Positions 1 through 64,000 of a DNA stretch of 64,000 nt are shown here, one piece after another. Under the pieces are notes generated by a model. The model made no database searches, was not told the origin of the DNA, and was given only the letters and a program-made list of their open reading frames with translations. How positions within the stretch are numbered: position 1 is the first letter of the stretch; each line of letters begins with the position of its first letter. Source of the stretch: a virus (Duplodnaviria; Heunggongvirae; Uroviricota; Caudoviricetes); IMG/VR virus record IMGVR_UViG_3300029969_000011; one strand, 5' to 3'. The translations under genes were made by a program, and so were the position numbers.

Positions 1-986
1 ACCTCTTTATTGATGATAACGTATCAAGCCTTTCTAATTGTTGCCGCCTTAAGAGCGATATTCGTGACCTTGGTTACTTCAACTCTATCGGTGGTACTGC
101 ATTGAAGGTTGGTTCTGTTAAGGTTAATACAATTAACTTAGCAAGACTTGCACTTGATACAAATACTAAGGAAGAATATCTTGAAGAGCTTAAAGCAAGA
201 ATACTTTGTATTGTTCGTTCTCTTCATGTTGTTCGTCATATTATCAAGAGAGATGTCGAAAAGAAGCTTCTTCCGAATTTCTCTTATGGACTTATTGATT
301 TCGAGCACCTTTACAATACAATCGGCTTCATTGGTATCTATGAAACTATGAAGAAGTTTGGTTGTACATATCAGGATAAACTTGGTAATACATATTACAC
401 TCAGGAAGCCGCAGACTTCGGCGAGAAGATTTTCAATACTATTCGTGAAGTTGCAGACAATTTCCTTGAAGAGAATGGATATGACTATAAGATAAACACA
501 GAGCAAATCCCTGGTGAGAACGCCGCAGCCAAGCTGATGAGAAAGGATATGTTCTTCTATCCCGATGCTGACATTTATGACTTACCTCTTTATGGTAATC
601 AGTTTATGCCTCTTGGTATTAAGTCAACATTACAGGAAAGAGTTCGTGTTCAGGCTATGTTCGACGGCTTCTGTAACGGCGGCTCAATTCTTCACGCAAA
701 TATCGACGCTCCATTTAAGAACTATGAGACTGCAAGAAAGATGACAGAATATATTGCAGACCAGGGCGTTACATATTTCGCATTTAATACAAAGATACAG
801 GCTTGTGAAGACAACCACGCTTTCTATGGTACAACTTGTCCTATCTGTGGTAAGCCTATTGCAACTGAGTACACAAGAGTTGTTGGTTTCTTAACTCCAA
901 TTAATACTTGGACAAGAGAAAGAAAGGCTGAATACAAGTTAAGAAAGTGGGAGCCTGTTAACGTAAACTTTGGAGATTTAATGTAA
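1..986 (+). CDS. nrdD: Anaerobic (class III) ribonucleoside-triphosphate reductase, 5'-truncated by the window
   Basis: Frame is open from base 3: SNCCRL active-site motif, VNTINLARLA, Zn site CEDNH...CPICG, glycyl-radical motif YTRVVGFLTP; stop TAA; no TAG. Confidence 0.93.
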   Translation, partial: LFIDDNVSSLSNCCRLKSDIRDLGYFNSIGGTALKVGSVKVNTINLARLALDTNTKEEYLEELKARILCIVRSLHVVRHIIKRDVEKKLLPNFSYGLIDFEHLYNTIGFIGIYETMKKFGCTYQDKLGNTYYTQEAADFGEKIFNTIREVADNFLEENGYDYKINTEQIPGENAAAKLMRKDMFFYPDADIYDLPLYGNQFMPLGIKSTLQERVRVQAMFDGFCNGGSILHANIDAPFKNYETARKMTEYIADQGVTYFAFNTKIQACEDNHAFYGTTCPICGKPIATEYTRVVGFLTPINTWTRERKAEYKLRKWEPVNVNFGDLM

Positions 987-1348
987 TGGAAAATAAAAAA
1001 TTTTCTGAGGAAGAATTAAATCACCTTGTTGATATAGCAAGACCAGGATATATATTAACAGAAAAAGAAGCTAAAGTGGGATTAAAGAATCTTAATGATG
1101 GCGGAGTTATAACCCAAGAAAAGCTAAATGAACTTATTGAGAGGGCATTACTTCCAGTATGCCCTCCCGCTTTACCTCCTTCGGATATACTTAAAGTTGT
1201 AGATAATTATGCTTATGTTTTCCCTGTTGACCCAGAGAAACCTGTTAAAATTGTCTTTGAAGGTGAACATATGGAGGAAGAAGAAATCATTAATGCTCTT
1301 TATGAGAAGTTAAAGGAGATATGTAATGAAAATAGTAAATCTGATTGA
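986..1348 (+). CDS. Hypothetical protein (120 aa)
   Basis: ORF coupled to nrdD by a TAATG overlap; no recognisable motif. Confidence 0.65.
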   Translation: MENKKFSEEELNHLVDIARPGYILTEKEAKVGLKNLNDGGVITQEKLNELIERALLPVCPPALPPSDILKVVDNYAYVFPVDPEKPVKIVFEGEHMEEEEIINALYEKLKEICNENSKSD

Positions 1349-1847
1349 TGAAGACTTTTGTCAATATAAGAAGCCTTCTATGTTTATAGGTATGCCCAAA
1401 TGCTCATTCAAATGCGATAAGGAATGTGGAGTACAAGTTTGTCAGAACTCTGCATTGGCTAATGCGCCGCAGATTGATATGAACCCAGTAGAAATAGCAA
1501 CAAGATTTTACAATAATCCTATTTCTGAAGCAATTGTCTTTGGCGGCTTAGAGCCATTTGATAGCTTATTGGATATGTGTGAGCTGCTTTCTATTCTTTA
1601 TGCTCTTTATAATTGCTCTTTTGATATAAAACAAGCTCCAGATATAGTTATCTATACTGGCTATTATCCGAATGAAATAAAAGATAAGCTGGAAACATTG
1701 AGAGTATATGAGGATATGAATATCATAATTAAATTCGGAAGATTTATTCCGAACAAACCAAGCCGCTTTGATGAGTTGCTTGGAGTTGAGTTGGCAAGTG
1801 ATAATCAGTATGCTATGAGGCTGGAGGATATTACCGATGACGAGTGA
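1326..1847 (+). CDS. nrdG: Anaerobic RNR activating enzyme (radical SAM)
   Basis: CSFKCDKEC...CQN Cys cluster, FGGLEPF, IVIYTGY; sits downstream of nrdD. Confidence 0.85.
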   Translation: MKIVNLIDEDFCQYKKPSMFIGMPKCSFKCDKECGVQVCQNSALANAPQIDMNPVEIATRFYNNPISEAIVFGGLEPFDSLLDMCELLSILYALYNCSFDIKQAPDIVIYTGYYPNEIKDKLETLRVYEDMNIIIKFGRFIPNKPSRFDELLGVELASDNQYAMRLEDITDDE

Positions 1848-2040
1848 TGGAAGATAGCCTGGTGCTCTTTGTCGTATGGAGAGAATAATAGAGAATAAAG
1901 ACATAAGAGTACCTTTTAATAATGAAAAAAATGCGTAGATATGTTTCATTGACCCGCATACTATGACGCCATATGAGAATGGAACTATCATAAGCGCTGG
2001 AACAGCATTTTTTAGATATACGGAGGGAGAACCAGGATGA
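1837..2040 (+). CDS. 67-aa protein (2 in-frame TAG) resembling a subdomain of the tail-tube paralogs
   Basis: GGAGGA RBS at 1823-1828. Translation MTSDGRQPGALCRMERIIENKDIRVPFNNEKNAQICFIDPHTMTPYENGTIISAGTAFFRYTEGEPG; TGA stop overlaps the next ATG. Not in the ORF track. Confidence 0.7.
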
Positions 2041-4964: not shown

Positions 4965-4983
4965 ATAGAAAAGGAGTGAGAAA

Positions 4984-7374
4984 ATGAAGATAATTTCTAA
5001 AGAAATTCGAGAAGCTGTACCTGAAGCTTATCTTCCTTTCAGTGCTTATGTTATTCAGACAAGAGCATTACCTGATGCTCGTGACTGTTTAAAGACTGGC
5101 GGTAGATATATTCTTTGGTCACAGTATCTCCAAAAGAACACTTATGATAAAAATAGAAAGAAAGGTCCTGACGTTGTTGGTCCTGTATCACACTGGAATC
5201 CACACGGTGATGCAGGTATTTGGGATAATATCGTAAGATTTGCAAAGCCATTCTCTATGAGATATTGTCTTGAAGATACAAAGGGAAATGTCGGCTCTAT
5301 GAGACTCGGTAAGGACCACGCAGCTCCCCGTTATCTTGAACTTCGTAGCTCAGAAATTGCAAATGAGTTTACAAAGCTCATTAAAAAAGATGCGGTAGAA
5401 CATTGGAAGTTAAACTATTCTGGTGAAGATAAATACCCTTCCGTATTCCCAACTTTATTCCCTAACTTTGTAAATGGTAATACTGGTATTGGTGTTGGAT
5501 GTGCAAGTAGTATCCCTTGCTTCAATCTATCTGAAGCCATTAATTCTTTGAAGATATTGGTTAATAATAGAGACGCAAGCTATGATGAGATTTATATTGC
5601 ACCTGACTTCCCTACTGGAGCTACAATTATAAATGGTGAAGCTGTAAAGGAATCATTACGTACTGGCCGCGGCAGAGCAGTAAAGCTCAGAGCAGTCATT
5701 GAATATGATGAAACAAAGAATGAACTTGAAATTCAGCAAGTACCATATCAGGTTTATACTGGAAGAGTTACTAAGCAGATTGAAGAAGCAATAGCTGAAG
5801 GTAAGTTGCTTGGTATCAAGAGCTTCTATGACGGTACTGATAGGTCTTGTGGTAAGTATGGTACTAAAATTATAATTACTTTAAATAAAGGAACTAATGT
5901 TAAGCAGTTAGTTCGTCAGCTTTATAAGGAAACTTCACTTCAATCTACTTTTACTGTTTGTCAGCTTATGCTTGAAAATGGTACAAAGCCAAAACAGTAT
6001 GGTTTGAAAGAAATGATGTTGGCATACCTTGACCATGCTATGGACTGCTTAAAGCGTTCTTATATCTTTGATTATAATAAGGTTAAGAAAACTCTCAATA
6101 TCAAAGAGGGTTATCTTATAGCGATTGCTCACATTGATGAAGTTGTCCAGTTAATCAAATCTGCTGAATCAGAAGCTTCACTTATCAAGACTTTTGAGGA
6201 TAAATATGGTCTTAATGAAGAACAATCTAAGGCTATTATTGACCTTAAGTTAAGAAGCTTAATGAAATTAGAGCATATTAAGATTGAAAAGGAACTTGAA
6301 AAATTAAGAATTGAAGCTGAAGGACTCGATACTCTTATTAATGATGAGGCCGCTTTTAAGGCAGCATTTATCGCAGAGCTCGACAGAATTGATAAGAAGT
6401 GGGGAGACTCTCGTAGAACTACTGTACTTAATCTCAATTGTGATGATGAAAAGGAAGATGCAGAGCCTATCGAGAAGAAGGAACTTCTTATATACTACAC
6501 TAATCTTGGCAACATTTATACCGTAGAAAGCTCTACTCTTATGAAAACGCGCCGCGGTGGCAAGGGTTCTAAGATTAAGATGGCAGATAATGAAGCAATC
6601 GTCAAGACAATTAATGATGACAACTTTAGCTCATTAATGATATTCTCTAACCTTGGACAGGCATATGCGTTGTCTATTGACGACCTTCCTGTAAATTCAA
6701 AGGTTAATGTAGCACAGCTATTCGATTTCAAACCTGACGAAAAGCCTACAACTATTACCTCAGTAAATCGTAGAAACGGTATCGAATACTATGTCTTTGT
6801 AACTAAGAACGGTATGATTAAGAAGACTGCGGGCGAGGAGTACAACTTTAAGAGAGGTAAGGCTCTTAAGGCAATCAATCTTAAAGACGGCGATGAAGTT
6901 GTAAATGTTCTCTTTATGAAGAACGAACAAGTCGGAATCTTGACAAATAACGGAAATTTTGTTAAAATAAATACAGAAGATATAAATGCAATAGGAAGAG
7001 CAACAGCAGGTGTCAAGGCTATTAAGCTTAATGACGATGACTATGTAATTGACGCAAAAATAATCGACGAAAAGGATAAGTATATGATTACACTTTCTGA
7101 ACGTGGCTTGATTAAGAAAGCTTCTATGAGCGAGTTCCCAGTTTGTGGCCGCCCCATCAAGGGTAAGAAGATTTCTGACACAAGAGACGGAGACAAAATA
7201 GTCAAATTCTTGACTTTAAATGAAGAAAGTGATATAATAATTATAGTAAAACGAAAGAACATAAAAATATCAACTTCTGAGTTAAGAGAGCTCACTCGCA
7301 ATGCTACTGGCGTAAAAGCTATAAACATTGATGAAGGCGACATAGCTTCAGATTTAGTGAGGGGATAGGAATGA
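4984..7374 (+). CDS. gyrA: Type IIA topoisomerase/gyrase subunit A with beta-pinwheel CTD; under code 15 it ends at TGA 7372-7374
   Basis: RALPDARDCLK, HPHG-like NPHGD, catalytic AAPRY, VNGNTGIGVG, GyrA-box-like RRGGKG, repeated (R/K)xxxG blades. The TAG at 7366 is followed by GAA TGA overlapping the next ATG. Confidence 0.92.
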
Positions 7375-7808
7375 GTATCGAAACTAAAATCGAAAAGATA
7401 AAGGCGGAGAAGGAGAGTGCCATTGAGGCACTCAACCTCTACCTTGATTCTATATACAATATGACTGACAGATTCTTCGATAACCAGATATAGGAAGTAG
7501 ATGGTGAGAAAAAGGTGGTCCGTGTTCTTAAAGAAGGACTGGAACCTGATGAGAAGATTGAAGGATTTGTAAAGGAATTAAACTCTGATGCAAGTGCGTA
7601 TGAAAATGTTAGAGGAAAGTTATTGTCTGACGACTTTAATTTGTCCCTCACTGAAATCGCAAGAATAGGACTTGCTTTTACTTTCGCAGGAATAGTAATC
7701 CAAAAGAGAGTGGAAGAAAGTCAGAGAGCGCTTGCCCAAATCAAGACGACAATTGACGTTTTGATGGAAGGAGAAACTCAAAATGTTGACTTTTCCAAAG
7801 AAGTTTGA
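7371..7808 (+). CDS. Hypothetical helical protein (145 aa, TAG at codon 41)
   Basis: ATG at 7371 is in frame with track ORF 7515-7808 through TAG 7491. Confidence 0.7.
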
Positions 7809-7814
7809 TATAAT
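7786..7814 (+). promoter_or_regulatory. sigmaA-type promoter
   Basis: TTGACT-N17-TATAAT with extended TG. Confidence 0.8.
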
Positions 7815-7873
7815 ATATATAGAAAATCAAACAAAGGCATAAGACCTTTGAGGAAAAGGAATAAGTTGAAAAT

Positions 7874-7902
7874 TTGACTTTTAATTCCGATTGTGTTATA
7901 AT
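7874..7902 (+). promoter_or_regulatory. sigmaA-type promoter (tandem with the 7786 promoter)
   Basis: TTGACT-N17-TATAAT with extended TG. Confidence 0.8.
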
Positions 7903-7995
7903 TATTAAGGTAAATAAATAGCAATATGTGGAAAACCCACCTGCTATTTTATTTAATACATTTTAAATTTTAAATTTTTAAAGGAGTGATTTACA

Positions 7996-8265
7996 ATGGC
8001 AACAAAGATGACTGAAGGTTCAAGAAAGGTATTTGAGTATCTCAAGGCAGCAGGCGCAGGTGTCGCTTTCACAACTAAGTAGGTATAGGAAGCTCTCGGA
8101 TTCGAGAAGGCTGGTTCTGTAACTGGTTCTGTTACTGGTCTTTGCAAGAAGGGCTACGCAGAGAGATTTACAGAGACTGTTGAGGATGAGAACGGCAAGA
8201 AGACTGAGGTTAAGAAGTTCGCTCTTACTGAGGCTGGCGCTAACTTCGACCCAGATGCTGAATAA
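7996..8265 (+). CDS. Small winged-helix DNA-binding protein (89 aa, TAG at codons 29 and 31)
   Basis: AAGGAGTGA RBS; MATKMTEGSRKVFEYLKAAGAGVAFTTKQVQEALGFEKAGSVTGSVTGLCKKGYAER...KKFALTEAG fits a wHTH pattern; codon usage typical of a highly expressed gene. Missed by the track. Confidence 0.75.
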
Positions 8266-8286
8266 TTGAAGTCAGACGAATTTAAA

Positions 8287-8315
8287 AGGGCGATATAACT
8301 ATCGCCCTAAATTTT
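8287..8315 (+). terminator. Intrinsic terminator
   Basis: AGGGCGATA-taac-TATCGCCCT followed by aaatttt. Confidence 0.6.
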
Positions 8316-8350
8316 ACTAAGAAAAAATATCCCAGACGGAGGAAATGTAA

Positions 8351-9256
8351 ATGTTAAATATCGAAAAAACTCAGAGTGATAATTCAGTATATATGAGCGG
8401 CGTTCTTAATGAACTTGACATAACCACAGGCCAGTCTAAGGACGGCAAAGAGTGGATTCGTGGTACAGCAGTAATTAAGTGCGATTAGGAGATTAACGGA
8501 GTTCCCGTTGAGTGCCTTGGCACAGTAAAGATGTTCTCTATGAGATTGAAGAAGGACGGAGACCTTAATAAGGTTTACGACAGAATCCTTGGCTATAAGG
8601 AGAAGTTCACCTCAGAGGCAGCTGCTGATGAAGACCATCCAGCTTCTAAGGTTACTGTAACTGGTCAGCTTGAAGAGAATATTTGGATTGACAGCACTAC
8701 AGGTAAGGAGCGCTCTACTTTCCAGATTAGTTCTAACTTCTTAAATGACAAGAGAGAAGGCGACGAAGATGGTATTAAGTTCCAGCTTTCAGGTGTCGTA
8801 CTTAATGACCCTACAAATGCTGATGAAATCGACAAGAATGATGAGCCTACAGGCAGAATCCGTATCAAGTTCGGCGTAATCGGTTACGGCGGCAAGATTA
8901 ACGTTCTTGACCTTTATGCTTCTGAAGGTGCAAAGAGCCACATTCAGGACAGCTGGAATAAGGAAGACACAGTTAAGGTAACTGGTCGTGTTAATGTAAC
9001 AAAGAAAATTGAGCAGATAGAGGAAAAGCAGGGCTTTGGTGAGTCTATCATCAAGACTCGTACTATTTCTACTAAGGAGCTTATCATAACTGGTGGTTCT
9101 GCTTCTGGTCTTGAGGAAGAGCTTTCATATGACAGCGATTCCATTAAGAAGGCATTAGGAGACCGTAGAGCTAAGATAGACGAATTAATTGAAAATAGTA
9201 AGAACTCTACATCAAAGGCAGCTCCAAAGAATAAGAGTACTGATTTCGGATTTTAA
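8351..9256 (+). CDS. Putative single-stranded DNA-binding protein (tandem OB folds), 301 aa, TAG at codon 46
   Basis: GGAGG RBS and ATG at 8351 in frame with the track ORF; beta-rich OB-like halves (VTVTGQL, VKVTGRV); acidic/aromatic tail STDFGF; lies before the AAA ATPase and helicase. Confidence 0.65.
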
Positions 9257-9269
9257 TTAATCCGAAATC
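9242..9269 (+). other. Hairpin spanning the SSB stop codon
   Basis: GATTTCGGAT-N8-ATCCGAAATC. Confidence 0.45.
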
Positions 9270-9296
9270 TAACTTTATATCAAAGGAGTGATTTAA

Positions 9297-10271
9297 ATGC
9301 CTATAGATTTACTTAATCTACAACCTCAAGTAATTTCAAAAAATTTAAGAGGTAAATACATAATGCTTTATGGCTTGCCAGGCGTTGGTAAAACAAGCCT
9401 CGCGGCACAGTTCGAGAAAGTTCTTATCGCAGGTTTTGAAATGGGTACTAATGCACTTAATAATGTATATGTTGCCCCTATAAAGACTTGGGATGACTGG
9501 AAGAAAATGGTAAAGGACTTATGTAGAAAAGATGAACTTAAGGATAAATTCCACGCTATTGCTGTTGATACAGTTGATGAAGCTTGGAACCTTTGTACAA
9601 AATACGTATGTGGACAGGCAGGTGTTGATAACCTTAGCGATGTCGGCTTCGGTAAACTTTATGCAGAAGCTTCTAAGGAGTTCGCACAGCCATTCAGAGA
9701 TTTAGCTTATAACGGCTATGGTTTAATCTTTACAAGCCACTCCGCAGAGAAGGAGTTTAAGAATGAGAAGGGTGAGAAATACACTCAGATTGTTCCAGCT
9801 CTTCAGAACCGTGCATTTGACATTATCAACAAGATGGTTGATATTATTGCATACATAAGAGAAATTTCTCTCGAAGATGGCGACAAAGTTATTCGTAAGC
9901 GTTTTATGTTTCTTCGTGATGAGGTCGGCGATAGATTCTTAGTTAAATCAAGATATCGTTATATTGCCCCTCGTATTCCACTCGACTACAACGCATTAGT
10001 TGAGGCTATATATAAGGCAATAGACGATGAGTGCGCTAATTCTGGCGGCGCAGCTACGGATGAACATAATCCATATACAACCTTAAATTTCGATGAACTA
10101 ATGGAAGAAGCAAAGATGTTATGGGGCCAGGTTGTCCAAAACAACAAGGTCGGTGAGGCTTCAGCTATATTGGAGTCTGTCTTTGGAAAACCTAAAAAGT
10201 TTTCAGAAATCTTACCTGAAGAGGTTGATGGGCTCAATCAAGTTTTGATTGAGGTACGTGCTATACTTTGA
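9297..10271 (+). CDS. AAA-family ATPase (AAA_24/Sak4-like recombination protein)
   Basis: Walker A GLPGVGKT, Walker B IAVDTVD, LIFTSH motif. Confidence 0.8.
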   Translation: MPIDLLNLQPQVISKNLRGKYIMLYGLPGVGKTSLAAQFEKVLIAGFEMGTNALNNVYVAPIKTWDDWKKMVKDLCRKDELKDKFHAIAVDTVDEAWNLCTKYVCGQAGVDNLSDVGFGKLYAEASKEFAQPFRDLAYNGYGLIFTSHSAEKEFKNEKGEKYTQIVPALQNRAFDIINKMVDIIAYIREISLEDGDKVIRKRFMFLRDEVGDRFLVKSRYRYIAPRIPLDYNALVEAIYKAIDDECANSGGAATDEHNPYTTLNFDELMEEAKMLWGQVVQNNKVGEASAILESVFGKPKKFSEILPEEVDGLNQVLIEVRAIL

Positions 10272-10277
10272 TTATTC

Positions 10278-10308
10278 GGGGAAAGATTAATTTCTTTCCC
10301 CTATTTTT
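10278..10308 (+). terminator. Intrinsic terminator
   Basis: GGGGAAAGA-ttaatt-TCTTTCCCC followed by TATTTTT. Confidence 0.7.
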
Positions 10309-10323
10309 GTAAGGAGGGGCCTA

Positions 10324-11586: not shown

Positions 11587-11589
11587 GGA

Positions 11590-11617
11590 AAAGGGCGACG
11601 AAAGTCGTCCTTTTTTA
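11590..11617 (+). terminator. Intrinsic terminator
   Basis: AAAGGGCGAC-GAAA-GTCGTCCTTT followed by TTT. Confidence 0.75.
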
Positions 11618-11646
11618 TTGACTTTTTAACCAAATAATGTTATAAT
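11618..11646 (+). promoter_or_regulatory. sigmaA-type promoter for the helicase operon
   Basis: TTGACT-N17-TATAAT with extended TG. Confidence 0.85.
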
Positions 11647-11677
11647 ATTTATAGAATTAAAAGAAAAGGGTGAAGAA

Positions 11678-12388
11678 ATGGCTAAGCGTATACCTGAAGA
11701 AATTATATAGAAAATTCCTATTCTTTATAAAGAGTACGGAGTAAAGAACAAAGTAGCTGAAGAGCTTGGTATCTCCGTGTCCAGTGTCTCTAAATATTTA
11801 ACAATATTTGAAGCCGCGCCACAAGAGAAAGAACCTAAGAAGAAAACAAAGATAACTCCAGAGGTAATTGAACAAATCAATAAAAGATATTCCGAATGTA
11901 AGAATATGTCACAGGTGGCAAGAGAATTAGGAATATCAGCAACGACAGTTAAGAATTATCTTTCAGAAGAAAATCTTCAGCTAAAACAAATTGAATGTGA
12001 TGATAGAGATGCTCTCTGGTTTTACATTTTCAGATTGTTTGGTAAGCACTCTGATGAAAAGCCAGTAAGTGATTGGAATATCACACAAATGCAGAAGTTT
12101 CGTAAGCAGGGGATGCCCTATAGAGGGCAGCTTCTAACTTTGAAATGGTTCTATGAAGTAAAGAAAAACTCAAAGGAAAAGTCCAATGGAAGTATTGGAA
12201 TAATTCCGTTTGTTTATGATGATGCTCGACGTTATTATGAAAAGCAAGCAAAGAAAGCTGATGAAATTGGACAGGCAATTCAGAAGCAACTTGAACAAGA
12301 CAGAATTGAAATCAAGTACAATCCGAGTGACTATATCGGCAAAAAGACCCGTCGTAAGTTAATTGACTTGAACGAGATAGGAGAGTGA
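11678..12388 (+). CDS. Tandem-HTH replication protein (putative helicase loader/initiator), 236 aa, TAG at codon 11
   Basis: Two HTH repeats (PEEIIQKI...VAEELGISVSSVSKYL / PEVIEQIN...VARELGISATTVKNYL), with the TAG aligning to Q of repeat 2; C-terminal GIIPFVYDDARRYY; directly precedes the helicase. Confidence 0.65.
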
Positions 12389-12392
12389 TATA

Positions 12393-15154: not shown

Positions 15155-15165
15155 GGAGGATTTGA

Positions 15166-17569: not shown

Positions 17570-17576
17570 TAATCTA

Positions 17577-47977: not shown

Positions 47978-47982
47978 TAATA

Positions 47983-52022: not shown

Positions 52023-52040
52023 CTGTCTCGCCTCCTTTTA

Positions 52041-53936: not shown

Positions 53937-53963
53937 ACATATTCACCTCGCTTATTTTATCCT

Positions 53964-54010
53964 AAGAAAAATTGGCTATTGAACTATTTAATTCAATAGC
54001 CAATTTCTTA
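53964..54010 (-). terminator. Long hairpin, probable terminator after the major tail gene
   Basis: TTGGCTATTGAA-N8-TTCAATAGCCAA, followed by TTTTTC on the - strand. Confidence 0.7.
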
Positions 54011-54023
54011 GCTTAATATGTTA

Positions 54024-56978
54024 TTAATATTCTGTTGCACCGATTGCATCTTCATCGTCAACGCCGTCAGCGCTTACTTTGAAGAGTTCAGCATCATCAA
54101 GAAGGTTGAGGTTCTCAGTATCCTTAACCATAGTAGAACCATCGTTCTCCTCTTCGTTCTCTACAACATTGTACTGGATAAACTTAACCATTACGCCGTC
54201 TTCAGGACGAAGAACCTTAAGGCTCATTTCGAATACTGTTGGGTCACCCTCTGCTTCAAGAGTGATTGTGTGCTCAGAGTTCATCTTAGCCTGTGGGATT
54301 ACGAACTGGAATCTCTCATCCTCACCAGTTTCCTTACTTCTTACAAATGTGTCACCGACAACCTTGTAAGTGCCAGGGAACTTATCAGCAGAGATTTCAA
54401 TTGTGTTACCAAGGCTGTTGCCCTCGTAAGCAACTGAACGAGTCCACTTGTAGAAGATTTCACCTTCTGCAATTGGAGTACCATCTGCATAAGGCTCCAT
54501 TGTGTTAGGGTCATAGTAAACAGCCTGAGCTGTGTTATCTGCCTCAGAAGGAGTTCCATTCAAGTTACCAGCAGGTACGATGAAGCTTCTCTTAGCAGTG
54601 CACTTCTCCATTCTGTCAATCTTCTTTGTCTCCTTGACGCCCTTACGGAAGTCGTTGCCCTCGTAGCTACCATAGATAGCTGCCATAGAAGCTGGAGTGA
54701 AGAGAGCATCAGTAATGTTAAGTGTGATTTCCTTACCATAGTCCCAACCGATAAGGTTTGCATTACCCTTACCACCAGTTGCATAAACTTCCTGAGCTGT
54801 CTGCTCGATAGTAGATACCTTAAGAGTATCAAGGAAGAGAACTGGAACATAACGGTTAGCCTTCTTCTGTGTCTTGTGTATCTTAAGTCCACCAACAGTG
54901 CAAGTAGCTTCAAATGTTTCATTGTTAGCTGTAATTACAGTTGTGTGGATTAAACCATTCTTAACAAGAAGTTCTGCCTTTCTGTTGTCGACGTAACCGC
55001 CGTCATTTACCATCCAAGCAGTTCTTGTAACGTTCTTGTTGCCGTGACGGTTAACTACGAAGATAAGTCCCTTGTTACCGATAATTACAAGTGCAAGCCA
55101 CTCTACACCCTTGAAAATCTTATCCTGGTAGTAAAGTGTGTTACCCTTCTTATCGTTGAACTTGAAGATTCCGTCCTTATCAAGAGCAAGTCTATTGTAG
55201 TTCTTGTTGTGGAGTAAGTACATATAAGCACTTGCGGCAGTATCCATAGCACCGTTTACCTTAACGTAAATAGCTCTATTAGAAGTCTTACCCTTTACAG
55301 CGTCATAGTCAACTCTTACTTCCTTACCAAGAGTACCATCAAGCATACCGATTTCATTAAGAGCAGTAACAACCTGTTCAAGTGGATACTGAGTCTCAAT
55401 GTCCTCATCGTTGTAAGCGTGCTTTACAGCTTCGCCATCAACTGTGTAGCTATAAAGGTTAGTGTCTCTGTCTGTGTCCTCTCCACCAGGAGTTGGGTCA
55501 CCAGTTGAATTTACCTTATAACCACCGAATACACCTGCAAGGCCGCCGGCACCAAGCTCTGAAGCAGTATCAAGAACAAGTCTCTTCTGACGAAGAGCGT
55601 CGATAGCATCGTTAATGCTGTAGTGCTTGTCATTGCCCCACATTACTGCGCCTGCAATAGCTGCATCATACTTATCTGCACCAACTGCTGCAATATAAGC
55701 TGCTGCATCTGCGAAGAACTGGATTCTACCATTGCCGTTTACTCTTGTGTAGTTATTGCCCAAGAAAGCAGGATTGTAGTAACCCATCTCATCTTCAACT
55801 ACAAGCTCAGCGTAGTCTGTATATGTTACATCGTAAGCCTTAGCTTCGATTGCGTCTGTAAGCTTTGCAAAAGCTTCTTTAATCTCATCCAAATCGTATG
55901 AGCCTTCATCGAACTTTCCAGCAAGACCAACAACTACGATTCTTTCAGCTGACTTAGGAGCACCAGCGAACTGGTCATTAAAGTCGAAATCACCGAACAT
56001 TGTGTCTGCGTTCTCGAATACGTATCTTACACCAGTCTTAGCAATAAGGTTCTGGTTCTTAGCGAACAACATAGCAACCTGCTGTGGGTAAGTAAACTCG
56101 TGAGTTCCTACGCCAGGATATCTGCTTGCGTCAGCAGTTGTAGCATTTGTGTTGTAAACACCAGTTGCAAGGTCTGCTGTAAACTGAAGTGTGATTTCTC
56201 CAGTCATTGTGCCCTTAGCCTTAGTAACGTGGTCTGAGTATTCAGTAAGAGTTACATTAGCTGTGAAATCAACTGGGCTTGTAGCTGCTAAGTTAGCAAG
56301 AATTACATCGCTACCAACTGGGATACCAGTATCCTTATCTCTCTTAAATACGAAAGTAGGAACACCAATACCGATTGGTCCATAAAGCTTAACGCCTGTT
56401 GTACCGATAATAGCTTCAAGGTCAGCAGTTGTTGTTGAGGCTGTAACAGTTACAGTTTCCTCAGTTACAGTAGCAGGTGTTGTTGAACTGTCAGTTGTAA
56501 CTTTAAGAAGTTCTGTACCAACGAAATCCTCTGGGTCAGTAACTACTATAGCTCCATTGCCAAGTTCTGCCATAGGAATTTTACCTTCAAGAGCAGCCTT
56601 AACAATAGCTTCCTGATTATCTTCAAATACATCTTCAACAGCAGCCTGTGTGTGGTCTGCATCAAGAGTATTCTTTGATTCGTCGTAGTAAGCTACAAGC
56701 TTTGCTATAACTGTTTCATTATCGTCACAGTCATAGTTAGTACCTTCAATGAGGTCAGCATCAGTAAATACATATGCCTCAAAGCCGTCCTCATCGCCTA
56801 CGCCTTCTTCGTTTACTGGGTAAACTGTGCGAAGCTCAAGAGCGCCTTTTAAAACAGAAGCGGCTGTAATAGTTCTCTGAGACTCGAATGTCTCTTCTTT
56901 CTTTTCAATACGGTAGAAAGTTACGTCAGCGACTTCCTTAATACCATACTTCTCAAAAAGGTTCTGAGTATTAGCCAT
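54024..56978 (-). CDS. Probable major tail (tube) protein with an ~690-aa inserted region, 984 aa, no TAG
   Basis: NLFEKYGIKEVADV at the N-terminus; LFLDTLKVST...GGKGNANLIGWDYGK from about aa 715; FPGTYKVVGDT, TITLEAEGDPTVF; highly expressed codon style; strong RBS and downstream terminator. Confidence 0.75.
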   Translation of the reverse strand: MANTQNLFEKYGIKEVADVTFYRIEKKEETFESQRTITAASVLKGALELRTVYPVNEEGVGDEDGFEAYVFTDADLIEGTNYDCDDNETVIAKLVAYYDESKNTLDADHTQAAVEDVFEDNQEAIVKAALEGKIPMAELGNGAIVVTDPEDFVGTELLKVTTDSSTTPATVTEETVTVTASTTTADLEAIIGTTGVKLYGPIGIGVPTFVFKRDKDTGIPVGSDVILANLAATSPVDFTANVTLTEYSDHVTKAKGTMTGEITLQFTADLATGVYNTNATTADASRYPGVGTHEFTYPQQVAMLFAKNQNLIAKTGVRYVFENADTMFGDFDFNDQFAGAPKSAERIVVVGLAGKFDEGSYDLDEIKEAFAKLTDAIEAKAYDVTYTDYAELVVEDEMGYYNPAFLGNNYTRVNGNGRIQFFADAAAYIAAVGADKYDAAIAGAVMWGNDKHYSINDAIDALRQKRLVLDTASELGAGGLAGVFGGYKVNSTGDPTPGGEDTDRDTNLYSYTVDGEAVKHAYNDEDIETQYPLEQVVTALNEIGMLDGTLGKEVRVDYDAVKGKTSNRAIYVKVNGAMDTAASAYMYLLHNKNYNRLALDKDGIFKFNDKKGNTLYYQDKIFKGVEWLALVIIGNKGLIFVVNRHGNKNVTRTAWMVNDGGYVDNRKAELLVKNGLIHTTVITANNETFEATCTVGGLKIHKTQKKANRYVPVLFLDTLKVSTIEQTAQEVYATGGKGNANLIGWDYGKEITLNITDALFTPASMAAIYGSYEGNDFRKGVKETKKIDRMEKCTAKRSFIVPAGNLNGTPSEADNTAQAVYYDPNTMEPYADGTPIAEGEIFYKWTRSVAYEGNSLGNTIEISADKFPGTYKVVGDTFVRSKETGEDERFQFVIPQAKMNSEHTITLEAEGDPTVFEMSLKVLRPEDGVMVKFIQYNVVENEEENDGSTMVKDTENLNLLDDAELFKVSADGVDDEDAIGATEY

Positions 56979-56990: not shown

Positions 56991-57749
56991 TTAATCGTCG
57001 GGATTTTCACCCCAATATTTTGTTTTCAGCTTTTTGCTATCCGCACCAGCACAAATCATTTGAAGGTCTTGCTGCCATTTCTCACGCATTTGATGTCTGC
57101 GGACCAAGCTATAAAAAGCATATAGAGATTCATTTCTATCAATTCCAAAAGTGCTCGCTATTTCCATAAGCTCGACTAAAGTTTGCCCTTCACCTTTTTT
57201 CTAAGCCTATTTCTTTTTAACGGCAGCAACTTTTTCTCTCAATAAGCGCATTTTGCGCTATCCGGGTGTCTCATCTGCTGGCGGCGGCTCTGGAACTTCT
57301 CGACGATTCTGTAATCTCAATATATCTTGAAAATCACTAAAATTATCAAGAGTTATGAGGCGCTTCTCCTTACTTGCAGAAGGACCACCAACTAACACTG
57401 AATTGATTTTCGGAAGTAATAATACTTCCTCCTTTATAAATGTAGAAAAGGTATTCTTCAGTTCTAACAAAAACATATCATCATATGCCGCGCTTTGTAA
57501 TAAGTATTCCAAAGGATGAATTGCTTCTGTCGGTTCTGTACCTGTTTTTTCTTTAATTATAGTTGCAATATCGTCAGCGGTCAATAGAAGTAAACCGAGA
57601 CGCTTATTGTAAGTTGTTGTGCCCATTTCAACAATTTCTTTAATTGAGTAAGGATAGACTTTACAAATGTACTATTTATCATAAAAAGAGGAAGGAACTT
57701 TGCAGAAAGCCTGTTCCTTGACCTCTTCAATCTAATTAGCTGAAAGCAT
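56991..57749 (-). CDS. Conserved tail morphogenesis protein (putative assembly chaperone), 252 aa, 5 TAG
   Basis: ATG at 57749 overlaps the previous stop; ends CAGADSKKLKTKYWGENPDD; assigned by position. Confidence 0.55.
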
Positions 57750-58251
57750 TAATAGCGAACCTCATACTATAGCATCCCATCTCTTCAGTTAATGAAGCGA
57801 CAGAAAAACCAAGATATTTGATTTCTCCTAAACCGTTTATACGTCTGTCCTGTATAGTCTATCTTATCTAACTCATTATTGCGAAGGGGCGCAAATTATC
57901 TCCCGTAATTAGCCACTCATCAAAGGGGCAATATACATTTATAACCAAAGACAAGTTTTCGTTGTCTGAATTTAAACCATTAATGGAGCCTTCATCGAAG
58001 AAAATGACGAGCTTTGATTCAGTATTCTAACTGCCATCTTTAATCTCTTTCAAGGTCAAAAGCGGCACAAAACGAATATTCTTATTCATTAGCTTTAAAC
58101 CGTCAATTTCATTAGGATATACAGCTGGATTCAATGGGTCTCTTCCTGTATTAACAAGTAACTTTAAAAGAGTCTGGTCTTTCATAAGTTTCTTGCCAAT
58201 CTTTATTAAATTCTTACCAATTTCTTGTCCGTATTTAACAGCAGATTCCAT
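57736..58251 (-). CDS. Putative tail terminator/completion protein, 171 aa
   Basis: NVYCPFDEWL...LRPFAIMSQI...INGLGEI; lies between the neck genes and the tail tube. Confidence 0.6.
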
Positions 58252-58255
58252 TAAA

Positions 58256-58987
58256 TCACACTCCATTCAAGAAGAAGTTATCATCTTCACCGACAAGAAT
58301 ATTTTCAGATGAAAGCGGCTCATTCTCTTTAACCATTCTTTCGCTGATATAAAGATATGCCACATTTGGAACAGCATAATTATTCTTACCAACAATCTAC
58401 CAGCCTCTATTCATATAATTAAAATATGAACCTTTCTGAAGCTCTGGATTATCCTAAGTAATAATAATGTTAGTTGAGAATGGCTCATTATAACCAAGCT
58501 CATTCGCATTCTTAATAGTAGTATCCTACATCAAAGACTGTGCATTATTAACATACTTAGCTGGTGCTGAATAACGTGTTGTACCATATTCATCAATCAA
58601 ATTAATTTCGGTGTCAAGACATATAATCTTGTAAGACTAATGTCCTTTAGTAAGATTATCTTCTTTATAAATTATTATCCAAATCTTATCCCATTCCTTA
58701 TCTTTAATCTTCTATTTTATATATAAAATGTCCCCAGTTTTTAGTGGCGCGGCAGAAGTGGACATTAAAAGATTACCTATCAAGTTACTTTCATTCCATT
58801 TATTAGGCTACAAAGACGCCTATACGTCAACAGGTTCATCATTAACTTGATAGAGCGTAACCAAATATTCGGTCTATTTCAGGAACAATCTATCAAACTC
58901 TACTTCCTTTCGAGTCTTAATTCTGTCCTGACGTGTGAAGCCGCCGTGATTAATTCTTTTCAAATACACATCTGTAAAGTAACTCAT
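58256..58987 (-). CDS. Putative head-closure (stopper) protein, 243 aa, 8 TAG
   Basis: Single frame ATG 58987 to TGA 58256; entirely missed by the track; assigned by position. Confidence 0.6.
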
Positions 58988-59256
58988 TGAACATCAATCC
59001 TATCAAATAAGTTCATGCACTCAAAGAGTGTCTTTCGATAATACTCGAAAGATAAATAACGGCAGGCGGATAATTTATAATAAAGAGTGTAATAATCAAT
59101 TGTCTTATTACAATCTTCATATCCCATTAACTCAATAAGAATACTATCTAAGAACTTTTTCCATTCCCCATTTTTCTCTCTTTCGCGAAGAAGCCCATAG
59201 AGTTTCTTTTTCATCTTGTCTCTATAGGCTTCTCTTACATCATCTATATTAGCCAC
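58984..59256 (-). CDS. Hypothetical neck-region protein (90 aa)
   Basis: GTG at 59256 after AGGAG; in frame with the track ORF. Confidence 0.6.
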   Translation of the reverse strand: MANIDDVREAYRDKMKKKLYGLLREREKNGEWKKFLDSILIELMGYEDCNKTIDYYTLYYKLSACRYLSFEYYRKTLFECMNLFDRIDVQ

Positions 59257-59725
59257 GTCTACTTCTCCTATTACGTCCTCCACCAGCAAGGCGGCCATAC
59301 TTAAATGGTGCCTTAGAAGGGGCACGATAGTAAATAGCTTCAAGGTCCTTAGCTTCTTCTTCAGCTTGAGCCTTTAACTTAATAAACTAATTGAGCAAAT
59401 GGGCTTGGGAAAATTCATGTTCATCATATTGAGTTTTTATATTCTCCCAAGTGTCGATGCTGCGTTTTACCCACTGCAACTTCATATATACAGCAAGTAT
59501 ATTAACTTCATCATCTGACATCTTGGGGTCTGCAAATGTTTGAGTTATATCGTCTACTCTTAGACTACAACGAGGAAATTTAAAATATGGAATAGCCTAA
59601 TTTAAAATAGCGTGCCAGTCGGCAGTCATCCACTTCAAGTCCTCTTCTGTAATATTGCAGTCAGACCATTCATCGTCTGATATACGACTGAGGAAGTTAT
59701 CGTAGACTTCCTGTAATGTTACCAT
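59249..59725 (-). CDS. Putative head-tail adaptor, 158 aa, 2 TAG
   Basis: TLQEVYDNFLSRISDD...LAVYMKLQWV...FSQAHLL; missed by the track; follows the capsid genes. Confidence 0.65.
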
Positions 59726-59742: not shown

Positions 59743-60261
59743 TTAGATTCTTCTTCCCTCAGCTGCGGCTTTCTTCTCTGCAGCATCTTCTGCAGCGATT
59801 TCTTCCTGTGTTCTTATAGCCTTGAGAATATCACGGCCAGTAACTTCCTTTAAGATTGCACACTTATCAACATTAACAATTTTATTTGAAATTGCAAAAT
59901 CAATAAGATTATCTATCTGAGCATCGGGTAACTTGGCAAGCTCTTTTTTGAAAACAGCTATTGGCTTATTGTTCAAAAGCTCTCTCATCTGAGTCTCACT
60001 AAGTGCGATGATATTTGTAGGTTCTGTTGCTTCCATAGGCTCAAGACCGAGGTCCTGCTTATCCTTCATATTGTCGATATAAAGCATACCCTGTCTAAAC
60101 ATATTTGCAACGCCATCATTATAAAGTAATATCTGAAGCTGGTCAAAAGGAATAGGCAATGACTGTCCTCTCTTCTGCCAACGACGTTTGATACCTACAG
60201 AAAGGTCTGTAATACCTACCTGTGAATCTACCATATTAGTTACTTTTACCATTCTTTCCAT
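59743..60261 (-). CDS. Conserved post-capsid protein (172 aa)
   Basis: GGAGG RBS before ATG 60261 (MERMVKV...); no TAG. Confidence 0.65.
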   Translation of the reverse strand: MERMVKVTNMVDSQVGITDLSVGIKRRWQKRGQSLPIPFDQLQILLYNDGVANMFRQGMLYIDNMKDKQDLGLEPMEATEPTNIIALSETQMRELLNNKPIAVFKKELAKLPDAQIDNLIDFAISNKIVNVDKCAILKEVTGRDILKAIRTQEEIAAEDAAEKKAAAEGRRI

Positions 60262-60283
60262 TATTAATTCCTCCTTTAAACTC

Positions 60284-60318
60284 AAAAACGGCGAGTGAGC
60301 CGAACTCACTCACCGTTC
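60284..60318 (-). terminator. Intrinsic terminator after the major capsid gene
   Basis: On the - strand: ACGGTGAGTGAG-TTCGG-CTCACTCGCCGT followed by TTTT. Confidence 0.8.
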
Positions 60319-60357
60319 TCATGGTATTTTACCTAATTTTATTTTTTTTAGACTAAA

Positions 60358-61509
60358 TTAGTCCTCTGGTGGCCAAACTGCTCCGTTGTAAGTACCTGCA
60401 GCGAGGTCAAGCTCGTACTTAGTAGGATACTTCTCAGGGTCAGCAAGATTAAGGTTAACATATACGCACCAGTTGTAGTTTGTAAGAATTGCAACACCGA
60501 CTCTCTGGTAAACTTCAATCTCGAAGCTACGGTCTCTGTGCTGCCAATCATCAAGCTGAGTGTTACCCTCGAATACAACCTTTACAGGCTTTGTATCTCC
60601 AACTGGGAAGATGTAAGCTGTAGATGGGTTAGCGATTGTAACTTCGTTAGTTTCGTCAGTGTAAGACTGAGGAATTTCAACGATTGGGTTACCACGGAAT
60701 GTGCGGATTCTGCCGTAAGCGGCAATTTCCTCAATGTTACGTGGGTTATATACAGGAGTTGCGTATCCACCGTAACCAGTACCAACGTTCTGAAGGGCAT
60801 TACCATATACAGGCATACCGATTGCGTCAGGACCCATTTCAGCAACGAACTCAGGTGTAGCGTAAATTACAACAGAACCGCTTGCGCTGTAAGCTGAAGC
60901 TACTGCACAAAGTGAAGCCATTGCGTCTGCATCGAAACCAGCACCGATGTACTTGTTCTTAGCAGGTCTGTTATCAGCATTAACTGCTGCAAGAAGAGCT
61001 CTCTGGATTTCGCCGTAAACAGCTTCCTGGAGACCTTCAAGGAGAAGATTAGTAGACTCTGCGATGTCCTCGTCGCCACAAAGATATCTCTCGAAGTCAA
61101 TGTAAGCAGCGCCACCGATTGCACGTCCACCAAGCTCGAATGTGTTCTTATCAAGTCTGAAGCTCTCATAAACACCAGAAAGAGCAACTGCTGTAATGAA
61201 CTGCTTAGCACGTCTACGGCCAGTGTTGATTACGAATACAGCCTTCTGGTTGAGTGGAACAGTCTTAACTTCTGCGAAAGAACCGATGAACTGTTCAACC
61301 TGCTTAGGAAGAATCTCAGTATATGCTTCCTGCATAATCTCGAAAAGGTCGAGCTTATTTCTTCTGTATGAATTGTAGTCGTTTGCTAACTTGTGAATTT
61401 CTTCACTAAGAGTAGCCTTAACGTCCTTATTACTAAACTTAGTAGGGTCTGGACTTGTTCCATAGAAAGAGTGAACAACCAAATCCTTTATTGCTTTGAT
61501 ATCAGCCAT
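60358..61509 (-). CDS. Major capsid protein, 383 aa, no TAG
   Basis: Size, position after the scaffold and decoration genes, strong codon bias, downstream terminator; HK97-like features (FAEVKTVPLNQKAVF, FRGNPIVEIPQSY). Confidence 0.85.
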   Translation of the reverse strand: MADIKAIKDLVVHSFYGTSPDPTKFSNKDVKATLSEEIHKLANDYNSYRRNKLDLFEIMQEAYTEILPKQVEQFIGSFAEVKTVPLNQKAVFVINTGRRRAKQFITAVALSGVYESFRLDKNTFELGGRAIGGAAYIDFERYLCGDEDIAESTNLLLEGLQEAVYGEIQRALLAAVNADNRPAKNKYIGAGFDADAMASLCAVASAYSASGSVVIYATPEFVAEMGPDAIGMPVYGNALQNVGTGYGGYATPVYNPRNIEEIAAYGRIRTFRGNPIVEIPQSYTDETNEVTIANPSTAYIFPVGDTKPVKVVFEGNTQLDDWQHRDRSFEIEVYQRVGVAILTNYNWCVYVNLNLADPEKYPTKYELDLAAGTYNGAVWPPED

Positions 61510-61528
61510 TCTTTATCCCTCCTTCTAA

Positions 61529-62302
61529 TTATTCTGTAGCTGGCTTATTTACAAACTTAAGCTTGAAGCTAAGTGTTGTATCAGCGTTGTTATATGCTTC
61601 TGTTACGATTGCGTAAACGTTACCAATTGCCTTTGCGATAAGAGCAGTATCAGTTGTGAAAACAAGCTTACCTCTATTAACAATAGGAGCGTTTGCATCT
61701 GCATTTGCAGTATAATCTGCTGTATCAAGAAGAACTGCATAAATAGGAGCAATATCAGGTCTTACATCGTTGTCATCATCAACAGTATCCTCAGCTTTTC
61801 TGATAGCTGCGATATACTGCTTAACTGCATCATACATAACCTTAGAATCCTTAATACTTCCACCATCGGCAACATAAGGAGCCTTCATAAAGTCAGACTG
61901 GTCATCCCAAACGATTGAGTTTGTGCAAATTCTCATACCAGGCTCGGTGAAACCGATTCTTGGGAGATATTCGCCAGCAACCATGCAGAAGTTTCTACGA
62001 CCAGGAGTAAACTGGTTATAAATCTTCTCAGTTGAGTAGTTAATACCAGCAACATAACCGAAGTCAGCTAACTTCTTTGAAGGAATGCAAGCAAGCTTTC
62101 TTTCTTTATCGCACATTAAAAATGCGCCGTTCTCAGCAACAATCTTTCCCTGAGCAGCCTCAGCAGGAAGAACTGGGAAGTGAGAAGCAAACTGGTTAGG
62201 ATTGAGTTCACACTGTGCTTCAACCATACCTGCGCGGTTGAACCAAACCTGTGATGGCTCAATCTGACCGTAACCTTTACAATCAAATTCATGAAGTGCC
62301 AT
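61529..62302 (-). CDS. Putative capsid decoration/structural protein, 257 aa, no TAG
   Basis: Between scaffold and MCP; GYGQIEPSQV, ENGAFL; highly expressed codon style. Confidence 0.6.
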   Translation of the reverse strand: MALHEFDCKGYGQIEPSQVWFNRAGMVEAQCELNPNQFASHFPVLPAEAAQGKIVAENGAFLMCDKERKLACIPSKKLADFGYVAGINYSTEKIYNQFTPGRRNFCMVAGEYLPRIGFTEPGMRICTNSIVWDDQSDFMKAPYVADGGSIKDSKVMYDAVKQYIAAIRKAEDTVDDDNDVRPDIAPIYAVLLDTADYTANADANAPIVNRGKLVFTTDTALIAKAIGNVYAIVTEAYNNADTTLSFKLKFVNKPATE

Positions 62303-63819
62303 TACTTATTACCTCCATTCAATCTTTTATTTAATAGTGCGAGAGCACCGGTCTCTACGACCTTGCCACTTGCATTATCTCCCTTGTAGAACTTATCTGG
62401 CTCGTTCTTTCTATTTGAGAAGATTGATGGGTCATTCTCAACAGCTGCTGTGCATACGTCCTTCTTGAACTCGTCTACAGAGAGGTCATTCATAGAGTTC
62501 TTAAAGTTTGTGATAGCGTCATCGCTGAGATATTCCTCATACTTAGCAAGAATAGCGTTCTTCTGGTCAGTTTCAACATTCTTCTTGAACTCGACCAATG
62601 CTGTGTTCTCATTTGTAATGTCGTTAATTTTATTGTTTAATTCAACTTTTTCAGCCTCCATTGTTTCAATCTTTGAGTTGAAATCTGCAATAGCAGTATC
62701 CTTCTCAGCAATTGAAGCCTCAAGAGTAGTCTTAGTTGATTCAAACTCACTTGCTGCTGTCTCAAGAGCTGTGATTTTCTCGTTAAGAGAAGCCTTCTCA
62801 GTCTCGAACTCAGTTGCAGCTGTTTCAAGAGTAGCAACCTTTTCAGTAGCCTCAGTGTAAGCAGTATTAGCAGCTTCGAATGAACCGTTACCAACTGCCT
62901 TCATAGCTTCAAGAGCTGTGAACTCAGCTTCAGTAACGTCTGTAATCTTAACTGATACAGTCTCACCAAGAGTTACATTGTCGCCGTCCTTAGTGTAGTA
63001 TGCTCTCATAAAACCGTCCTTGCTGCGGCAAAGAGCATAGTCATCATAAACGTCAACGATAAGAGCACTGATTTCCCAGTTGCCTGCTTCGTTGAAGTTA
63101 GGATTTACAAGGTCAAACAAAACGTCTGCCTTTTCATTATCAGATAATCTGAAAAGTGACTTATCCATTTTCTTACTCTCCTCCTTCTTCTTAGTAAAGT
63201 TTCTGACGTAAGCAGTCATTACTTCAATAAGCTGTTCTTCTGTAAGTTTGGAGTAGAAAGCAGAACCCTCAAAACAAGGTTCAACATCTTCTCCCAAGGT
63301 CTGTAAACCACAGAGTCCACCTGATATAAAGTAATAATATGGTCTTCCGTCTTCTTCGCTCAAACGCCATTCACCCTTTAAGTTCTTTCTAAAAATCTCC
63401 ATTGACTGGGGCTTTCCAGGAATTAAATGAGCTTCAGCATAGATACCAGTGAATAGAAGAACGTCACAAGACGCATATGAACGAGTGACACCATCTTCAT
63501 CTTCGAAGTCTTCCCAAGCGAAGTTTGGATTTTCAGGGACGATTCCATAGATACGTCCATCAGAATTATCTTCACCGTGGTCCTCGAAGTCAAGGGAGTC
63601 TTTATCAAAGATTCCCTTAACTGGAGTATATGGCAAAGATGCTATAAGCTAATTCGCAAAATCCTCTGATATAAAAGTACGATTTCTATTCATACCCTTA
63701 TAAAAAATTCGTACTCTGCTTTTAGATAAGACATCGTTATATTTTTCTGGCACACCGTAGACTGTTACGTCTAAAGTACAAGGTGGATTTGAGAAGTCAG
63801 AATGATTTATGTTACTCAT
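62302..63819 (-). CDS. Putative prohead protease/scaffold fusion, 505 aa, TAG at codon 57
   Basis: ATG at 63819 is in frame through TAG 63649; N-terminal RVRIFYKGMNRNRTFI...LPYTPVKG; C-terminal long acidic coiled coil. Confidence 0.7.
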
Positions 63820-64000
63820 TAATCATCGCCCTCCTCTTTTTTATTGTTATCCTCTTTTTTCTACTCCTACTTGCCGCCGGAGTCAGTTTTAGCTGACGGT
63901 GTGGAAGCTGGCTCTTTTCCGTCACTTATCGGCTGTCCCTGAGCTTTACCGGACTGAGTATAAGCAGACTGAAGAGGTTTAAGAACTTCATCAAGATTAA
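63819..64000 (-). CDS. C-terminus of the probable portal protein (partial)
   Basis: NLDEVLKPLQSAYTQSG... ending KQEQKKEDNNKKEEGDD with two TAG; TAATG overlap with the protease gene; assigned by position. Confidence 0.55.

Follow-up and report, generated by a model that had tools for sequence, protein, structure and literature searches.

We report here that the window analysed, a 64-kb stretch of viral DNA (positions 1 to 64,000 of the IMG/VR record IMGVR_UViG_3300029969_000011) with a guanine plus cytosine (GC) content of 36.6%, is very probably part of a large, uncultivated SPbeta/Schiekvirus-like siphophage of Bacillota, recovered from a metagenome, in which TAG is read as glutamine (NCBI translation table 15), as judged from its sequence and those of its relatives. 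That TAG is a sense codon for glutamine had been claimed in the first-pass annotation, made from the letters of the window only, and this claim is borne out by coding density, gene length, strand coherence, colinearity with orthologs and a residue test. The same annotation took this recoding to be already established in some gut phages, which agrees with the literature: it was predicted from metagenomes, Borges et al. (bioRxiv 10.1101/2021.08.26.457843) surveyed it, Peters et al. 2022 (PMC9523058) gave proteomic proof of it in two crAss-like phages, and it has been described in the phAss-1 group (PMC10607447). The window is a new lineage, and the recoding itself is not new to phages.

The genome sequences used for comparison were IMG/VR relatives, designated here G001 to G005, plus contigs with L numbers; the relatives include genomes of 155-180 kb, and the full genome of the phage is probably also of this size. 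G001 (35 kb) is ~95% identical to the window from 35.9 to 64 kb. G002 (179.8 kb) and G003 (163.5 kb) are recoded: taking TAG as sense lifts the coding density of the former from 0.71 and that of the latter from 0.77, in both cases to 0.91. G005 (167.2 kb; GC, 30.5%), which has terminal repeats, is syntenic with the window, to which it is 65-75% identical in nucleotide sequence, but its code is the standard one: none of its 147 genes contains an in-frame TAG, and 15 of them (10%) stop at TAG. Freeing TAG raises its density from 0.870 (code 11) to 0.889, and freeing TGA raises it to 0.883. The clade thus comprises recoded and standard-code genomes with shared gene order and protein identities of 65-87%, a clean natural comparison for studying the way in which phages adopt an alternative code, adjust its use and perhaps abandon it.

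Open reading frames (ORFs) were modelled with a simple greedy caller, not with Prodigal, under code 11, with TAG freed and with TGA freed. Under code 11 the overall coding density of the window was 0.764 (103 ORFs) and that of its late block, from 26.6 to 59 kb, was 0.652, with 63 ORFs scattered on both strands. With TAG as sense these values became 0.971 (47 genes) and 0.989, the late block now consisting of 13 genes on the minus strand only. The control with TGA as sense gave 0.809 overall (109 ORFs) and 0.695 in the late block (64 ORFs, both strands). The comparison of codes 11 and 15 proposed in the first-pass annotation therefore yielded a gain far beyond chance, which also exceeds the threshold of Peters et al. 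2022 (PMC9523058), a density increase of >10% over code 11 in contigs of 5-100 kb. Recoding of TGA or TAA was ruled out by density and strand coherence. When only TAA and TGA are taken as stops, the window resolves into two blocks, one on the plus strand (1-26.5 kb) and one on the minus strand (26.6-63.8 kb).

In-frame TAGs, the sole type of interruption in the genes, numbered 196 and lay in 26 of 42 genes (197 in the ORF model, less one upstream of the likely GyrA start). In the minus-strand genes, all 171 interruptions of the frames were TAG, no frameshift and no internal TAA or TGA was found, and frames extended up to 2535 codons. That read-through restores intact genes, as had been claimed, is confirmed by Pfam domains that run across in-frame TAGs and by end-to-end alignment of the read-through proteins with their standard-code G005 orthologs, whose ends match the TAA or TGA ends of the window within a few residues. 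Under this model TAA closes 27 of the 42 genes and TGA the other 15; at three of these ends, the G005 ortholog stops at TAG instead. The previous statement that no gene needs TAG as a stop holds in so far as all 42 genes end in TAA or TGA, but it must be qualified for GyrA. One of the two TAGs ascribed to this gene, at 4966-4968, lies upstream of the likely ATG (4984) and is not part of it; the other, at 7366-7368, occupies the position of the stop codon of the G005 ortholog and is retained in G002. Since a TGA follows two codons on, the TAG-GAA-TGA end of GyrA can work under either code, and GyrA probably terminates at TAG whenever this codon is not suppressed.

In order to identify the residue, TAG was translated as X to avoid alignment bias, the residues of the relatives were tabulated at the TAG columns of the window, and glutamine and 19 alternatives were scored by substitution profiles derived from the same alignments. 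At 128 TAG columns G005 had Q in 41, E in 15 and K in 15, the rest being scattered; Q thus reached 32% against a background of 3.4%, the Gln enrichment that the first-pass annotation had proposed to look for in homologs. In this comparison the nearest competitor of glutamine trailed it by at least 74 nats, and glutamine was also ranked first with G001, G002 and G003. The TAG-column profile in G005 was indistinguishable from that of the CAA/CAG columns (chi-square p = 0.145). Additionally, TAG was opposite CAA, two changes away, in 30 cases and opposite CAG in 11, and the CAA excess was also present in G003 and G002; therefore, the Gln signal does not merely reflect a single C-to-T step. In the late genes, Gln-type codons reach 3.3-5.5% once TAG is included. 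These alignments show that the residue encoded by TAG behaves like glutamine.

The individual motifs cited in the first-pass annotation were all found in the window, with one correction of coordinates. The D-TAG-R-Y-TAG-F string of tail paralog 3, GATTAGAGATATTAGTTT, occupies minus-strand positions 49941-49958 (previously given as 49944-49958), and its counterpart D-Q-R-Y-Q-F, GACCAGCGTTATCAATTT, positions 48241-48258 of the same strand. The motif GKDxRYxFEI of paralog 3 aligns with GKDQRYQFTI in paralog 4, GEDERFQFVI in paralog 1 and GEDERMQIKF in paralog 2, so that all three alignable paralogs besides paralog 3 have Q in the second TAG column; across the alignments of the tube paralogs, TAG stands opposite Q or E. 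In the lysin, the VanY motif YRSYSDxxSIY comprises at its double TAG (26930-26935) codons 514-515 of the gene at 26600-28474. Solved LdcB/VanY enzymes have SGFRSYxxQxxLY against this motif, with Q at the first x in the LdcB chains of the PDB, and the standard-code lysin ortholog of contig L005 has Q at 7 of the 16 TAG positions, including QQ in the motif. The RuvC motif EDIxLx corresponds to codons 139-144 of the gene at 25439-26176; of 65 full-length homologs, 48 and 41 have Q in its two x columns, and at codon 208 the number with Q is 41. Finally, the TAG of the helix-turn-helix (HTH) gene is codon 11, where PEEIIxKI of repeat 1 aligns with PEVIEQIN of repeat 2 with TAG opposite Q; the L001, L006 and L009 orthologs also have Q at this position.

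The machinery was sought in the relatives. A tRNA with a CUA anticodon (tRNA-CUA) was present once in each of the recoded near-complete genomes G002, G003 and G004, inside a tRNA array, while the standard-code G005, with 20-odd tRNAs, had none even at relaxed ARAGORN thresholds. The three tRNAs-CUA differ from each other, but all have U1:A72, like the phages' own tRNA-Gln(UUG), a tally that was taken from ARAGORN boundaries and is noisy and not exclusive to Gln. By plain pairwise similarity to the other phage tRNAs, that of G004 was nearest to tRNA-Gln; its isotype-labelled database matches covering most of the molecule were all tRNA-Gln, and the best partial labelled matches of that of G002 were likewise tRNA-Gln, in both cases with weak E-values. 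The G004 tRNA gave no match in Escherichia coli genomes. Neither an RF-1 domain nor the catalytic domain of the class Ic synthetases for glutamine and glutamate (GlnRS/GluRS) was found in G001-G005, and Release factor 2 was likewise absent from the relatives. As a separate observation, the tRNA array of G005 (76-88 kb, L076) contains several Rfam tRNA matches which ARAGORN called only with odd anticodon loops or introns.

Several points weigh against the reading of TAG as glutamine in the window. The TAG columns are slightly less rich in Q than the CAA/CAG columns (32 vs. 42% in G005), which fits Gln sites under lower constraint but would also allow a minority of other readings; the 64-kb window contains no tRNA gene, the suppressor being seen only in relatives; and the tRNAs-CUA of G002 and G003 are not close to tRNA-Gln, their isotype being ambiguous by plain similarity. 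It must be considered, in this regard, that TAG could be a sense codon for another residue (Glu, Lys, pyrrolysine, Tyr, Trp, Leu or Ser) or be read ambiguously. E and K are indeed the next commonest residues at the TAG columns, and ARAGORN labels the tRNAs-CUA as "Pyl". That label, however, derives from the anticodon table of the program, and pyrrolysine decoding was rejected on the residue scores, in which K was 75 nats worse than Q. E and K were behind Q by 45-134 nats in every comparison and are also the residues that usually replace Q in ordinary CAA/CAG columns; Tyr, Trp, Leu and Ser, the single-step neighbours of TAG, are rare at its columns. Given also the preferential pairing with CAA and the strong conservation of Q in the three RuvC columns and the LdcB column, we consider another residue highly improbable. 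Still less credit, practically none, is due to the possibility that TAG remains a stop and that the late block consists of decayed or fragmented genes or of an assembly artefact. Nothing beyond the code-11 reading itself speaks for it, and it is refuted by the open frames described above, the density and the colinearity with orthologs; moreover, the same in-frame TAG pattern recurs in independent contigs from other samples (G001, G002, G003, L001, L009 and L026).

The plus-strand block is devoted to nucleotide metabolism and replication, with Pfam matches to NrdD, GyrB, GyrA, AAA_24, PIN-PhoH, double-HTH, DnaB, RecJ, a DnaE-type polymerase (1306 amino acids, aa), ClpP and dUTPase, while a primase and the RuvC-like resolvase were found via PHROGs. 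The minus-strand block contains the virion and lysis genes. The features that bear on TAG usage are the following:

7366-7374, plus strand: end of GyrA (TAG GAA TGA), overlapped by the ATG of the next gene (7371-7373).
7371-25432, plus strand: replication block (HTH protein, DnaB, primase, RecJ, DnaE, ClpP, dUTPase and others, by Pfam), with 0-2 TAG per gene, which are spanned by the ortholog alignments.
11678-12388, plus strand: double-HTH gene, with TAG as codon 11 (11708-11710).
25439-26176, plus strand: RuvC-like resolvase, 245 aa, 9 TAG (PHROG 159/827), with EDIxLx at 25853-25870.
26186-26563, plus strand: gene of 125 aa, 3 TAG (phrog_1401), two of which correspond to Q in the L001 and L004 orthologs.
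26600-28474, minus strand: lysin, 624 aa, 16 TAG, with a weak M23 match and a VanY/LdcB domain (Pfam VanY, 9e-30, spanning three TAGs).
28480-34812, minus strand: Tal-like tail protein, 2110 aa, 31 TAG (Pfam Prophage_tail and YOMG_N); the G005 ortholog has no TAG.
34816-37353, minus strand: Dit-like distal tail protein, 845 aa, 14 TAG (Pfam Sipho_tail), with a C-terminus colinear with G005.
37409-45016, minus strand: tape measure protein, 2535 aa, 51 TAG (Pfam PhageMin_Tail, 7e-32); the G005 ortholog has 2588 aa from stop to stop and no TAG.
45037-46944, minus strand: virion-block gene of 635 aa, 14 TAG, open only with TAG as sense and with no family match.
46989-56978, minus strand: five tandem tail-tube-like paralogs of 300, 487, 859, 631 and 984 aa, with 7, 6, 11, 2 and 0 TAG, respectively.
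56991-59725, minus strand: four small virion genes with 5, 3, 8 and 2 TAG, whose G005 orthologs have no in-frame TAG.
59743-62302, minus strand: head genes, including the major capsid protein (60358-61509), with 0 TAG, 0 CAA and 30 CAG as Gln codons.
62302-63819, minus strand: gene of 505 aa upstream of the head genes, with one TAG at codon 57 that is common to G001 and G002; portal candidate by position only.

All five tube paralogs match phrog_2729, and one of them also matches phrog_117 (major tail protein). Two of the small virion genes have G005 orthologs which stop at TAG where the window has TAA or TGA. The predicted model of the capsid protein has the HK97 fold, every one of its 50 top PDB matches among those listed being a capsid or encapsulin shell. 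The protein has over 1700 database homologs, and gene calling under code 11 gives the 120 of them that were listed at full length.

The load of TAG differs markedly between genes. Its share of the Gln-type codons is zero in DnaE, GyrB, primase, PhoH, the capsid gene with two neighbours and the 984 aa tube paralog, 0.07-0.20 in most other replication genes, and 0.33-0.67 in the tape measure, Tal, Dit, lysin, RuvC and small virion genes. The four TAG-free late genes (54024-56978 and 59743-62302, minus strand) contain 51 CAG, 0 CAA and 0 TAG, against 170 TAG, 128 CAA and 114 CAG in the remaining late genes, and this CAG preference persists in G002 and G003. Per-gene TAG shares are correlated among the window, G002 and G003 (Spearman 0.67-0.76, n = 31), whereas the sites themselves are mostly not shared (19 in common with G002 and 5 with G003); therefore, selection seems to act on the TAG load of each gene and not on particular sites. 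In the genes of the replication block, all 12 TAGs fall within the first 36% of the gene, and in low-TAG genes overall the positions depart from a uniform spread (Kolmogorov-Smirnov p = 0.003); a similar trend towards the 5' end, although less strict, is present in the relatives. The base following TAG showed no context bias with respect to CAA/CAG (p = 0.44), and a read-through context was consequently dropped as an explanation.

Regarding sequence context, CTAG and GATC are both missing from the whole 64 kb, where a second-order model predicts 113 and 188, respectively, and CATG is five-fold depleted (42 vs. 206 expected). CTAG is also absent from G001 and is only partly depleted in G002, G003 and G005. 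Because of the absence of CTAG, the codon before an in-frame TAG never has C as its last base (0 of 197, vs. 15% for CAA/CAG). The lack of CTAG and GATC looks like restriction-site avoidance.

A scheme can be proposed in which a phage-encoded tRNA-CUA, charged with glutamine by host enzymes, would decode TAG in competition with the host release factor 1 (RF1), no release factor or GlnRS/GluRS of the phage being involved. Genes made before or without the suppressor would be free of TAG or contain at most two, placed towards the 5' end, as in DnaE, GyrB, primase, capsid and the main tube paralog. Since TAG makes up 33-67% of their Gln-type codons, the output of the tail, tape-measure, lysin and resolvase genes would depend on the supply of suppressor, and these TAG-rich genes may accordingly be made later, at a lower level, or both. 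The codon distribution suggests that TAG would act as a dial of dosage and timing and not only as an on/off gate. This distribution agrees with the published proposal (Borges et al., bioRxiv 10.1101/2021.08.26.457843) that late functions are delayed or limited by recoding, and it also agrees with a plain selection for translation efficiency. According to the latter, TAG would still be glutamine and its uneven load would result from efficiency selection in abundant proteins plus drift, with no timing switch. The TAG-free late genes are in fact the capsid genes and the main tube paralog, in which CAA is avoided too, as in general codon optimisation, and TAG sites turn over quickly. Efficiency by itself does not predict the crowding of the replication-gene TAGs towards the gene start, and the lysin and resolvase are among the most TAG-loaded genes, as in other recoded clades (Borges et al.). 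We regard the explanation by efficiency as possible but less likely than not. Under the reading of TAG as suppressed by a phage tRNA, the clade bears on amber suppression in Bacillota hosts without a release factor or synthetase of the phage.

With respect to known systems, the nearest published group is phAss-1 (proposed Phassvirus) and the wider group that includes Enterococcus phage EF1 (Babkin et al. 2023, PMC10607447). Like the window, phAss-1 is a large siphophage with probable Clostridia/Bacillota hosts and with TAG as Gln in virion and some DNA-processing genes; as in the relatives of the window, tRNA-CUA genes are present without a dedicated synthetase. The capsid protein of the window is homologous (34% identical to phAss-1 and 31.5% to EF1/VRE9) and its DnaE is ~40% identical to those of EF1 and SPbeta. 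Megablast of 11 kb of the window against the phage collection gave no match. With neither a nucleotide match nor a capsid identity above 34%, membership of the genus Phassvirus was rejected; the window shares the wider group and, by these comparisons, is a different genus-level lineage. The window carries no terminase.

The recoded gut-phage clades of Borges et al. (bioRxiv 10.1101/2021.08.26.457843), namely Jade, Sapphire, Agate, Garnet, Amethyst, Lak and crAss-like, resemble the present one in having TAG as sense in structural and lysis genes and variably in replication genes, as well as suppressor tRNAs. They have close standard-code relatives with low GC and few TAG stops, comparable to G005. 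Some Lak and Agate genomes encode Release factor 2, unlike the relatives of the window. The crAss-like phages (PMC9523058) share the reassignment and were recognised by the density criterion used here, but they are podovirus-like, infect Bacteroidota and have unrelated gene content; moreover, their code 15 was proven by proteomics, while that of the window is known from sequence. The standard-code SPbeta-like and Schiekvirus-like phages of Bacillus, Staphylococcus and Enterococcus have a homologous replication module (DnaE-type polymerase, gyrase, DnaB, RecJ) and capsid. To our knowledge, no cultured phage of these types has been reported as recoded. From a practical point of view, annotation under table 11 shatters the tail, lysis and resolvase genes of such a phage, and protein databases already contain fragments of this kind from its relatives, for instance RuvC pieces of 91-132 aa.

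The history of the code was addressed with a tree of 11 replication-block proteins (4872 columns; FastTree and IQ-TREE) rooted with more distant standard-code contigs. The standard-code contig L003 and the G005/L004/L007 group branch first, followed by the recoded series G003/G004, G002/L017, L026 and the window with L001 and L009. Contig L006 (IMGVR_UViG_3300037454_000107) lies inside this recoded series as sister to the window group, with a support of 1.0. Its near-identical partner L005 (IMGVR_UViG_3300028887_002443) was not included in the tree, but DnaE places it likewise next to the window, to whose DnaE that of these contigs is 87% identical. Neither L005 nor L006 has an in-frame TAG in any of 14 genes, including RuvC and the full-length lysin, which in the window contain 9 and 16, respectively. 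Constraining the recoded clade to exclude L006 was 518 log-likelihood units worse (approximately unbiased test, p = 6e-133), and a scan for further contigs of this lineage returned only these two. Since the standard-code L005/L006 lineage nests inside the recoded clade, the simplest history is likely one gain of TAG as Gln followed by one return to the standard code, the alternative being four separate gains. It must be noted that both contigs are fragments that do not cover the tail genes and that phages have mosaic genomes. Borges et al. (bioRxiv 10.1101/2021.08.26.457843) considered a return to the standard code possible, with an unclear mechanism. That in this clade the change of code is reversible and is tuned gene by gene is put forward here as a tentative proposal, which we hold to be possible but short of probable.

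Two further observations were made on the contigs compared. In L005 (2063-7104), L006 (10001-15042) and L009 (10001-15146), DnaE spans ~5 kb instead of 3.9 kb and its match is split in two, which suggests that an intein or a homing-endonuclease intron, lacking in the window gene, has been inserted there. Additionally, in a second, distant group (L037, L039 and L021; ~56-100 kb and 22 kb, with DnaE 39-40% identical) in-frame TAGs occur in conserved genes, while none occur in those of the neighbours L033, L024 and L016; the recoding of this group looks like an independent gain.

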